Positions 45,698-48,409 of a stretch of DNA of 64,000 bases are shown in pieces. The stretch comes from Patescibacteria group bacterium (lineage in GTDB: Bacteria > Patescibacteriota > Doudnabacteria > UBA920 > VMFF01): positions 76,207 to 140,206 of the forward strand of contig JBBTQQ010000001.1 of the NCBI GenBank assembly GCA_038065615.1. The letters run 5' to 3'. The first letter of the stretch is position 1. Each line of letters begins with the position of its first letter. Under the pieces are notes generated by a model. That model saw only the letters and a list, made by a program, of their open reading frames with translations, had not been told where the DNA came from and ran no database searches. Position numbers and translations under genes: made by a program.

Positions 45698-46705
45698 TTA
45701 CTGTATTAAATGGTTAAGCCAAAAATTATTTAACAGCTTTTCTTTTATCTTTTGAGTATTCCCGTGTTTCAACAAACCCAGATAGGATTCTAAAGCTTCT
45801 ATTTTTGGTACATCTATTATTCTCTTAAGCATTCGCCTCTTAGTGGTATTGCGTAGCGTCTTATACTTCGGAAAGTGCACCCAACCAAGAAAATCTACTC
45901 CAGATGCGAAAGACTTAATATATATTTTGTTTGGATGCAGTGACAACTTCAGCTTCTCGGTCAGAAACTCCTGCACCCTCGGTATCTGCTGCTCCAGCCA
46001 CCGTTTATCTTCCGACAAGAAAACAAAATCATCCGCATACCTAATATAGTTCTTAGCTTTCAACTTGTGTTTGACAAACTGATCAAGTTCGTTCAAATAT
46101 ACATTGCAGAATAGCTGCGAGGTTAAATTGCCTAGTGGTAATCCCCTACCCTGTGTATAAATTGAAAAGCTATCAATAACGTTCCGCAATAACCATAAAA
46201 CTTCCGAATCTGGAATATTGCGCTGCAAAATCTCTATTAAGACTTTGTGGTCAATGCTTGCAAAAAACTTCTTAATATCGCACTTCAGCACCCAACAGCT
46301 CTGGGTATTATTTTTACTGACCCGGTTAGCCATCGTCTGAAACCTGTCCATAGCCTTATGTGTCCCTTTGGCGATCCGACAAGAAAAGGAGTCAGCAATG
46401 AATAGGTCGTCGTACGCTGGGTAGAACAAACGATAGATCGCATGGTGCAACACCCTATCCCGAACCGAAGCCTTATGAATCTGTCTCGGCTTAGGATCAG
46501 AAATTGCAAAATTATAATAGTTGCCGTGCTTATATGACCGGTTGGCAAGGTCTTCGTGAAGCTGTATTATATTATCAATCAAATGTAGCCTAAAGTCTTG
46601 AACGTCATGCTTTTGAGATTTACCCAAAGCAAACTCGCGCCACGCAGCAAGCAGGTTTTCTATACTAATAACATCTGAATAACTATGAACGAATTGCCTT
46701 TGCAT
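45698..46705 (-). CDS. diversity-generating retroelement reverse transcriptase
   Basis: RT motifs appear in order: ASVRDRVLHHA (motif 2), SFSCRIAKGTHKA (motif 3), KCDIKKFFASIDH (motif 4), the DGR-specific LPLGNLTSQ ([LIV]GxxxSQ), and RYADDFVF (YADD). The likely start is MQRQFVHS... at 46705. The caller's longer ORF (to 46753) would read through a G9 tract. Confidence 0.9.
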   Translation of the reverse strand: MQRQFVHSYSDVISIENLLAAWREFALGKSQKHDVQDFRLHLIDNIIQLHEDLANRSYKHGNYYNFAISDPKPRQIHKASVRDRVLHHAIYRLFYPAYDDLFIADSFSCRIAKGTHKAMDRFQTMANRVSKNNTQSCWVLKCDIKKFFASIDHKVLIEILQRNIPDSEVLWLLRNVIDSFSIYTQGRGLPLGNLTSQLFCNVYLNELDQFVKHKLKAKNYIRYADDFVFLSEDKRWLEQQIPRVQEFLTEKLKLSLHPNKIYIKSFASGVDFLGWVHFPKYKTLRNTTKRRMLKRIIDVPKIEALESYLGLLKHGNTQKIKEKLLNNFWLNHLIQ

Positions 46706-46719
46706 AAAAATTCTACTAA

Positions 46720-47094
46720 AACGACCCCCCCCCAACGGCTTCGGACTTACCAATCTTACAAAAAATTACAGCAGCCTACAAACTTTGGCATGGACTGCTG
46801 CCACAAATTCCAAGACTTGCCCGTTACTCCTTGGGTGAAAAAATAAACTTACTTTTCATCGAACTAATTGAACTGACTTTAATTGCAACATATTCTACCA
46901 AAGATCGTAAAGGCGAAATCGTACAAAGAGCATCAGTTAAACTGGATATGCTCAAATACTTTCTGCAAATAGCTTGGGAATTAAAAGCAATTGATAATAA
47001 AAAGTACGCCTTGCTTAGTGAACCGCTTTCAGAAGCTGGACGGATGATGGGCGGCTGGAGAAAACAGCTGCAAAAAGAAACTCCGCCTAGTTAG
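46720..47094 (+). CDS. avd: DGR accessory variability determinant (Avd-like four-helix-bundle protein); start codon unresolved
   Basis: The open frame from 46720 encodes ...ILQKITAAYKLWHGLLPQIPRLARYSLGEKINLLFIELIELTLIA...MLKYFLQIAWELKAI...SEAGRMMGGWRK, matching the Avd/IVS-protein pattern (PKxxxY-L, ML+F-L, E-GR-LG-W). The first in-frame ATG is missing; TTG is at 46831 and CTG at 46795. The upstream ATG at 46685 is in the +1 frame. Confidence 0.65.
   Translation, partial: NDPPPTASDLPILQKITAAYKLWHGLLPQIPRLARYSLGEKINLLFIELIELTLIATYSTKDRKGEIVQRASVKLDMLKYFLQIAWELKAIDNKKYALLSEPLSEAGRMMGGWRKQLQKETPPS
46725..46733. repeat. C9/G9 homopolymer tract at the overlapping divergent 5' ends of avd and RT
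   Basis: Direct count of 9 consecutive C on the plus strand. One extra C would fuse ATG 46685 in frame with the Avd ORF. Confidence 0.7.
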
Positions 47095-47100
47095 GCGGAG
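47081..47100. terminator. near-perfect 20-bp palindromic hairpin between the avd stop and the 3' end of TR
   Basis: ctccgcctag|ttaggcggag. It can serve as the avd terminator and as a structured element immediately 3' of TR on the minus strand. Confidence 0.5.
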
Positions 47101-47111
47101 CATGAAGAAAG

Positions 47112-47245
47112 TTGCGAACGGCGGCGAAACGGCAGTTGTCATTCCACCTGTTCTCGAAGTTGTTGAGGTTAAGCTTGCGCTTGTCGTCCCAATTGTCGAG
47201 ATACGGCACGTTGCGGTTGCCATCAGCGTTCGTCCAGATCGAGCC
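47112..47245 (-). repeat. DGR template repeat (TR), 134 bp
   Basis: Minus-strand sense is Asn/AAC-rich: GSIWTNADGNRNVPYLDNWDDKRKLNLNNFENRWNDNCRFAAVRN. It differs from VR at exactly 20 positions, all minus-strand A in TR. Confidence 0.85.
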
Positions 47246-47487
47246 TTCATGTGCAATATATCATCTAATCCACCACCTCTTGAATATACTCTTGAGGTTG
47301 TATTTTATTCGGGAACTTTAAATCCGCTAATATACCACACCAAGTATCTTCATTTGAAGAATTATCAGAAACACTTCTACTGCAAACCTTAGTCAGCAGC
47401 ACTCTGGTTATCTAATAATGCGAGACAGATTATCCGAAGCCTTAACCGCAGATATGATCTATCAAAAATAGTTTAACAGGAATATAT

Positions 47488-47527
47488 AAAAAAGCGAACC
47501 CGTTCCAGCAAGCTGAAACGGGTTCAC
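47488..47527 (-). terminator. rho-independent terminator of the DGR target gene
   Basis: Minus-strand gaacccgtttcagcttgctggaacgggttc followed by gcttttttat. Confidence 0.65.
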
Positions 47528-47583
47528 GATTCGGACGCAGAGTCCAAGAATCAGACGAAGGACCAAAGCACCAAGCAGCCGAG

Positions 47584-48204
47584 CTACTTGCGAACGGCGG
47601 CGAAACGGCAGCGGCCATCCCACCTGTCCTCGAAGAAGTCGAGGTTAAGCTCGCGCCCGCCGCCCCAACCGTCGAGATACGGCACGCGGCGGTCGCCATC
47701 AGCGCTCGTCCAGAGCGAGCCGAGGCAGATGATTGGGAACTTGCGCTGCTCTTCCGGGTGCGTCTCGCCGAAGGCGAGCGATTCCGGTAGGATCGCTGCG
47801 CGAAGCCCAAGCTTGTCGAGCTCTACCAGTACGACGTCGCTTTCCATCTCCCGATCGAAATGCACCAGAACGATCTCGGTGCTGACTTCGCCCTTCCTAG
47901 TGAACGGGAAGTTCTTCTCGGTGATATTCTCGTTGACGTAGCGGTAGTTACCGGCCTTGATCATGTCAGCGAGATTGCGACCGTAGTTGATCAGCACGAG
48001 GAACGTGTTGGTCAACAGCGCGACCATCTGGTTGATCACCAGTCCGAAGCGCTCCTGCAAGTTGCCGCCGGCCTCGAATACGGCCTGCGCTTGCGGCTTG
48101 CTCATCCGCCGCAAGATTGGATCCAGAAGGCCTTTGAGTGCCCCGATCTGTTCATCGTTGGCTGGCACGACTGGGGTCTGCGACGTGATCGACGGTGTCG
48201 TCAT
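47584..48204 (-). CDS. DGR target (variable) protein, probable C-type-lectin-fold C-terminus
   Basis: GC-rich ORF. Likely start MTTPSITSQ... at 48204 with a GGAGGAG SD; the caller's start is 48291. The C-terminal 44 codons are the VR, ending CRFAAVRK, which is reminiscent of CLec-type VR ends. Confidence 0.7.
   Translation of the reverse strand: MTTPSITSQTPVVPANDEQIGALKGLLDPILRRMSKPQAQAVFEAGGNLQERFGLVINQMVALLTNTFLVLINYGRNLADMIKAGNYRYVNENITEKNFPFTRKGEVSTEIVLVHFDREMESDVVLVELDKLGLRAAILPESLAFGETHPEEQRKFPIICLGSLWTSADGDRRVPYLDGWGGGRELNLDFFEDRWDGRCRFAAVRK
47588..47721 (-). repeat. DGR variable repeat (VR) at the 3' end of the target gene
   Basis: 134 bp aligned to TR with 20 A-to-N differences (to C, G or T). 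The identical GC-rich 24-nt 3' end (ctgccgtttcgccgccgttcgcaa) looks IMH-like. It encodes ...GSLWTSADGDRRVPYLDGWGGGRELNLDFFEDRWDGRCRFAAVRK-stop. Confidence 0.85.
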
Positions 48205-48409
48205 CGTCTTACTCCTCCAGAGAGTTGTTTGTTGCCATCCCTTGCGGAATGCTCTGCTCGGATGTGAGCTAAGAGCTTCAGATATAATCATTATTATAGC
48301 TAAAGCACTCTGCCCAATTTAGTTCTATATTTTGACATATTCATATACTTCTGTCAAGTGGCACGGGGCTACACTTTGTATATGATATACTACCTATGTC
48401 GCACAATAT

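Follow-up and report, generated by a model that had tools for sequence, protein, structure and literature searches.

The diversity-generating retroelement (DGR) of Bordetella phage BPP-1 (mtd-avd-TR-brt) is the paradigm for its kind: a reverse transcriptase (RT) with [LIV]GxxxSQ and YxDD motifs and the four-helix-bundle protein Avd accompany a template repeat (TR) and a variable repeat (VR). There, too, the repeats differ by adenine-only changes at codon positions 1 and 2 of AAC-rich codons, and the VR sits at the C-terminus of a C-type-lectin-fold protein and has an invariant GC-rich 3' end resembling an initiation of mutagenic homing (IMH) element. Closer in host are the DGRs of the candidate phyla radiation (CPR, or Patescibacteria), bacteria in which they are known to be common. 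These DGRs form DGR clade 2 (Roux et al. 2021, PMC8144416), and 90% of them have architecture B3, with TR, then avd on the reverse strand, then RT (Wu et al. 2018, PMC5758913). Here we describe a locus in a 64-kb window (the whole stretch of DNA that was analysed) of a Patescibacteria-group metagenome-assembled genome from Hainich groundwater well H41. We find that it is almost certainly a genuine, complete DGR of the CPR type, laid out as target(VR) - TR RNA gene - (avd, reversed) - RT.

The repeats themselves are central to this identification. Over 134 nt each, TR and VR differ at 20 positions. Read on the minus strand, each of these is an adenine in the TR, replaced in the VR by G (15 positions), C (3) or T (2), so that 20 of the 36 TR adenines are altered and none of the 98 non-A positions (hypergeometric P = 2.3e-14 for all 20 differences falling on adenine). 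In the target open reading frame (ORF), each of the 20 changes affects the first or second position of a codon, and the 22 mutable codons of the TR allow about 10^20 possible protein variants. The two copies share their 3' 24 nt unchanged and diverge directly after CGCAA, the homology ending with the last codon, which is AAC in the TR and AAG followed by TAG in the VR. This is the sequence arrangement of an IMH/IMH* pair, a GC-rich shared 3' part followed by divergence. A preliminary description of this DNA, made from its letters, had proposed two 134-bp repeats with 20 adenine-only differences, an invariant IMH-like 3' end and an Asn/AAC-rich TR translation; the coordinates, pattern and invariance were reproduced, and the translated string matches, with its 8 AAC codons. 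No further VR-like copy was found in the whole window when any base was allowed at TR adenines.

The RT points the same way. Its best match in the PDB is Bordetella bRT (8ub7_A, 4.9e-42) over residues 11-301 (~290 residues), in an alignment that pairs GLPLGNLTSQLFCNVY with GIPIGSLTSQLFANVY, and it matches the phage RT family phrog_1423 at 1e-109. These matches and the motifs listed in Table 1 bear out the initial assignment of a DGR-type RT with [LIV]GxxxSQ and YADD. Were the enzyme instead a group II intron, retron or defence RT, and the repeats an unrelated duplication, one could cite the 149 bits scored by the NCBIfam group II model TIGR04416 and the many PADLOC defence RT (DRT) models that match. 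Yet the TIGR04416 cut-off is 300 bits, the retron model reaches 59 against 235, and the NCBIfam group II, retron and DRT models all stay below their cut-offs. Group II and retron-type RTs in the PDB give only 1e-19 to 1e-20, far behind bRT, which answers the question, raised in the preliminary description, of whether the RT groups with them. Further, the RT has no maturase or endonuclease domain, an Rfam scan of 45400-48600 returned no intron or retron RNA family, and adenine-only repeats with an adjacent Avd are specific to DGRs. Taken together, the adenine-only TR/VR pair, the bRT match and the absence of an intron or retron RNA refute a group II, retron or defence identity, to which we give next to no credence.

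The same gene order and orientation, target(+) - TR(+) - avd(-) - RT(+), recurs in ~30 of 80 related loci found by tblastn with the RT, Avd and target. In ~30 Patescibacteria loci the TR/VR pairs are 125-147 nt long and carry 12-26 differences, nearly all on TR adenines. The neighbours of the element in the window are housekeeping genes (pnp, rpsO, a XerC/D-like recombinase gene, rluB and genes for TPM and LemA proteins), which places it in the chromosome rather than in a phage. That rpsO and pnp adjoin the DGR had been stated at the outset, and ORF and domain annotation agree; some CPR DGRs also lie near ribosomal-protein genes (Wu et al. 2018, PMC5758913). Host group, groundwater habitat and TR-(avd)-RT layout are all held in common with described CPR DGRs (Wu 2018; Roux 2021), as is a small target without recognisable transmembrane or Pfam domains. 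The order and strands of TR, avd and RT, together with the Patescibacteria host, are those of B3. Because the layout is B3 of Wu 2018 and CPR DGRs are clade 2 of Roux 2021, the element is an ordinary further member of this described kind, with no essential difference from it. Taken alone, it is one more CPR DGR beside the thousands catalogued and of modest interest. The literature searched, whose scope did not extend to Paul et al. 2017, makes no mention for CPR DGRs of a leader RNA structure, a CTTGG array, an island of high G+C at third codon positions (GC3) or a poly-C run in avd. These features of the locus (Table 1) are described below.

Table 1. Coordinates of the DGR and its associated features, numbered from the first base of the window.
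Feature	Position	Strand	Remarks
DGR reverse transcriptase gene, 335 aa, ATG at 46705	45698..46705	-	Pfam RVT_1 1e-24; LPLGNLTSQ and YADD present
avd accessory gene	46685..47094	+	Opposite strand to RT, TR and VR; frameshifted at C9 in this assembly
Homopolymer run	46725..46733		C9 on avd strand, G9 on RT strand; 40 nt after avd ATG, 19 nt upstream of RT ATG
Intrinsic-terminator-like hairpin (GCTCCGCCT/AGGCGGAGT) and T-run	47071..47101	-	Starts 10 nt after TR; overlaps avd stop codon on other strand
Pyrimidine-rich linker, TR to hairpin	47102..47111	-	CTTTCTTCAT; CTCTCTTTATTT-like in relatives
Template repeat (TR)	47112..47245	-	134 nt; 36 adenines, none at third codon position; 8 AAC codons
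Conserved structured leader of TR RNA, ~225 nt	47246..47470	-	Five covarying helices directly 5' of TR
Leader helices	Pa 47453-47445/47440-47432; Pb 47401-47392/47387-47378; P1 47340-47329/47262-47251; P2 47326-47323/47314-47311; P3 47298-47294/47279-47275	-	
Target-gene terminator hairpin, 15 bp, and T-run	47494..47527	-	Terminator scan
YTTGG motif array directly after target stop codon	47528..47583	-	CTCGG 47583, CTTGG 47575, TTTGG 47567, CTTGG 47548
Variable repeat (VR)	47588..47721	-	Last 45 codons of target; invariant GC-rich, IMH-like 24 nt at 47588-47611
Target gene, 206 aa, ATG at 48204	47584..48204	-	Low-confidence helical N-terminus, then C-type-lectin-like domain (residues ~66-206) as predicted

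Comparison of relatives revealed that the whole spacer from the target terminator to the TR is conserved and structured. Helices P1 (12 bp), P2 and P3 have 91.9% of cells paired, against 38-54% in slid-partner controls, and show compensatory changes in 15 of their 24 pairs, values reached in none of 500 shuffles. Compensatory changes also occur in 16 of the 19 pairs of Pa and Pb, two hairpins that each bear a GGTTACGGCTT-like motif. A covariance model built on P1-P3 (R1) matches each DGR locus once, invariably at the position immediately 5' of the TR: 41 matches in total, 13 of them outside the training set, and none elsewhere in 742 kb. A single-sequence minimum-free-energy fold of the window reproduces all of the leader helices. 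On the other side of the TR, relatives have a pyrimidine linker of 10-14 nt, then a GC-rich hairpin, then a T-run. The equivalent hairpin, with 6-11 bp, differing sequences and a T-run, is present in ~27 of 29 related loci. Given this conserved structured leader 5' of the TR and the linker, hairpin and T-run 3' of it, the TR RNA likely comprises leader, TR and terminator and is probably made separately from the RT mRNA. A sigma-70 scan placed a promoter-like site inside helix P1, which is at odds with this RNA model.

The leader bears a distant, weak resemblance to RT-16, an RT-associated RNA motif of unknown role (Weinberg et al. 2017, PMC5737381). The same study showed that the BPP-1 spacer contains RT-10, and its authors speculated that more of the RT motifs are parts of DGRs. 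Common to the leader and RT-16 are an outer helix enclosing a hairpin, conserved flanking AUAAAAUACA and GGU(G) motifs and a position beside an RT gene, whereas helices P2, Pa and Pb are extra in the leader. As the Rfam model RF03019 (RT-16) scores the window's leader at 30.4 bits, under its gathering score of 50, and as Rfam at gathering thresholds found only tRNAs and no RT-16 in 15 relatives, we regard this as resemblance and not membership. Two candidate long-range pairings were rejected. Pairing of the P3 loop (GAGAG) with either the linker or the terminator's 5' arm was no better within loci than between them (matched -5.9 against cross-locus -5.7 kcal/mol, permutation p = 0.23), and pairing of the 5' and 3' flanks of the TR (a 7-nt CATGAAG/CTTCATG in the window) is not conserved in relatives.

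At the sequence level the target protein has no match in Pfam, NCBIfam, PADLOC, PHROGs or the PDB. Its VR-bearing domain models as a C-type-lectin (CLec/FGE-like) fold, in keeping with the preliminary description of a CLec-like target of about 206 aa, a length that the ORF confirms. The accompanying label of a hypervariable 'surface' protein is unsupported, because the target has neither a signal peptide nor a membrane segment; it has no Pfam domain either. CPR clade-2 DGR targets typically lack signal, membrane and Pfam features (Roux et al. 2021, PMC8144416). The target gene also stands out in composition, with a GC content of 0.60 and a GC3 of 0.80 against a window median GC3 of 0.30. Over 30 loci the target, with its VR excluded, has a median GC3 of 0.72, compared with medians of 0.39 (RT), 0.37 (Avd) and 0.38 (background genes). 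In 76 of 81 loci target GC3 is above background, and homologues of the target that lack a DGR share the elevation. The island is not accounted for by adenine mutagenesis, because third positions of the target are poor in T as well as in A.

Directly after the target stop codon, the family carries strand-specific tandem NNNCTTGG units (~79 loci). CTTGG occurs 1.8 times per 70 nt there, compared with 0.07 in random 70-mers of the same loci (~25x), its complement is not enriched, and successive TGG motifs are most often 8 nt apart (40 of 72 intervals). Four units make up the array of the window (47583 to 47544), and a strong terminator comes after them. The array also follows target homologues that have no adjacent DGR. 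Our guess is that it marks the recipient site. A stable hairpin after the VR, of the kind present in BPP-1, was considered and rejected: the fold is weak (z = -1.2, family median -1.5) and the dominant signal is the 8-nt CTTGG periodicity. As separate observations on the target family, ~46 of 80 related loci have target homologues with no RT or Avd in the flank (for example L053, L059 and L068), and some loci without RT and Avd hold tandem pairs or triplets of targets (L022, L051, L052, L072, L076, L081 and L083). In L072, two target copies share 211 nt at 100% identity, spanning the 3' end of the gene and the downstream flank.

An Avd gene between TR and RT had also been proposed, and an Avd homologue is indeed encoded there (bAvd PF22296, 2e-10; NF033474, 1e-13; profile positions 30-104 only), but on the strand opposite to RT, TR and VR, and out of frame at C9. 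The avd and RT start codons (ATG at 46685 and at 46705) overlap divergently by 21 nt, an overlap retained in relatives. In this assembly the only avd ORF with a canonical start is 46831-47094, which begins with TTG and encodes 87 aa without helix 1; three-frame translation makes the missing N-terminus readable in frame, but with no start codon. One more C in the run (C10) restores the frame and yields a 136-aa protein (P0165) that matches phrog_3206, 'Avd protein of DGR', at 5e-20. Both lengths occur within the population, the run being 9 in the window and in L001 and 10 in L002 and L003, and the 87-aa and 136-aa forms are both found on ~325.6 kb contigs whose sizes are one base apart. The flanks of this locus's run had no match in a JGI metagenome scan.

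Homopolymers of 9-10 G/C are error-prone, and in the closest homologues (P0045 and P0046) the frame stays open across a proline stretch that is interrupted. Sequencing or assembly errors over a gene that is simply intact might accordingly account both for the C9/C10 difference and for the avd of relatives being out of frame. Several patterns in the family speak against this. A poly-C run (C7-C14, mostly 9-10) lies at the same place in avd in 22 of 32 related loci, which belong to different lineages, and 20 of 21 run-bearing loci, compared with 0 of 8 run-less ones, have the conserved upstream avd ATG out of frame, with shifts in both directions. In a Veblenbacteria cluster with identical flanks (L089-L099), a single assembly pipeline gives C8 in 2 loci, C9 in 8 and C10 in 1 from different samples; only C10 leads to full-length Avd, and contigs with the short form of Avd outnumber those with the long form by 40 to 7. 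Lengths are uniform in Avd clusters without the run and mixed in those with it. Neither the conservation of the run nor the contrast with run-less loci is well explained by error alone, and we consider this reading improbable. Phase variation, transcriptional or ribosomal slippage and homopolymer error are each possible explanations of the run.

Contingency loci with poly-G/C runs underlie phase variation in Neisseria, Haemophilus, Campylobacter and Bordetella. Like them, avd contains, towards the 5' end of its coding sequence, a stretch of 8-14 G/C whose length varies between near-identical loci and decides the frame of the ORF. It differs in that in-frame states fall short of the one-third that chance would give and that the variation is known here from assembled sequences; moreover, avd is part of a mutagenesis system and encodes no surface antigen. 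No precedent for a homopolymer or frameshift in avd was found in the literature searched. We tentatively put forward, as a possibility that we would not yet favour, that a hypermutable poly-C run gates avd in this clade of CPR DGRs, usually holding it out of frame, and that the RNA and target-site design of the clade differs from that of BPP-1.

How active the element is must be judged from the alleles available. That TR and VR differ at no non-adenine position indicates that homing was, in evolutionary terms, recent. Several observations weigh against a complete, working DGR: helix 1 of Avd has no canonical start in frame here, the target carries no signal for secretion or for the membrane, the 90% cluster of the target contains no VR variants, and the target protein is identical in all 9 contigs, from at least 5 samples, which therefore have the same VR. 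Since all assemblies carry the same VR allele, current activity is unproven. The family is nonetheless active in nature, as judged from a Veblenbacteria relative (L089-L098) in which near-identical loci from different groundwater samples carry three VR alleles differing at 19-27 positions, 15-18 of them at TR adenines. Loss and decay also happen at this chromosomal site, because in L039 (5001-10905) and L074 (850-6094) the target, the xerC-like gene, rpsO and pnp are kept and RT and avd are gone; a TR-like repeat persists in L039 in decayed form, and of its 30 differences only 17 are at A.

These facts invite the reading that the DGR was recently silenced, with avd truly frameshifted at C9 after past diversification, homing abolished and the VR frozen. 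The C9 run, in the window and in an ENA 325-kb contig, leaves only the 87-aa Avd without helix 1; all assemblies share one VR allele; and the syntenic L039 and L074 have lost RT and avd, with the TR of L039 decayed. Set against this are the complete lack of non-adenine TR/VR differences and an RT, leader RNA, terminators and target ORF that are all intact. In addition, C10, and with it an intact avd, is present in the same population, yet the VR in those assemblies is the same, and an out-of-frame avd is usual even in relatives with VR diversification. We judge silencing unlikely on balance, though well worth keeping in mind.

The identities of the parts, the adenine-only pattern, the layout and RNA structure kept in relatives and, as a model, the lectin-like fold of the target were established in this analysis; how they would work together is modelled on the BPP-1 paradigm, from which the RNA ends, RT-Avd binding, the cDNA route and a ligand-binding function of the target are borrowed. 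By this analogy, a minus-strand non-coding RNA would consist of the ~225-nt structured leader, the 134-nt TR, the short pyrimidine linker and the terminator hairpin. RT and Avd would copy the TR into cDNA, misincorporating opposite template adenines, and the cDNA would replace the VR at the 3' end of the gene for the 206-aa protein of predicted C-type-lectin fold, with the invariant GC-rich 24 nt as the 3' limit of the replaced segment. The locus departs from BPP-1 in several respects. Its avd, placed between TR and RT, is read from the opposite strand. A conserved structured RNA flanks the TR on its 5' side, whereas the BPP-1 spacer (the Rfam RT-10 region) is on the 3' side, where this locus has only the 10-14-nt linker and terminator hairpin. 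Downstream of the VR is the 8-nt-periodic CTTGG array in place of the short GC-rich cruciform of BPP-1. Finally, the element is chromosomal and not carried by a phage, and its target is small and not a tail fibre.

Elsewhere in the window, we note two adjacent plus-strand genes (52539-53390 and 53399-54028) with GC3 of 0.49 and 0.46 against the window median of 0.30. One is annotated as an NNMT/PNMT/TEMT-type methyltransferase and the other has no Pfam match.

The wider meaning of the locus comes from comparison across its family. The leader emerges as a defined non-coding RNA and offers a handle on RNA recognition in CPR DGRs. The strand-specific array beside every target, orphan targets included, may mark the site of cDNA delivery, and the length-variable run in avd may switch the system on and off. 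If gating by the run is real, full-length Avd, and with it mutagenic homing, would arise only after slippage in replication, transcription or translation, making this a stochastically switched diversity generator. If the proposed clade design also holds, a five-helix leader 5' of the TR would take the place of the 3' spacer, and an 8-nt-periodic CTTGG array would serve as the mark of the target gene.

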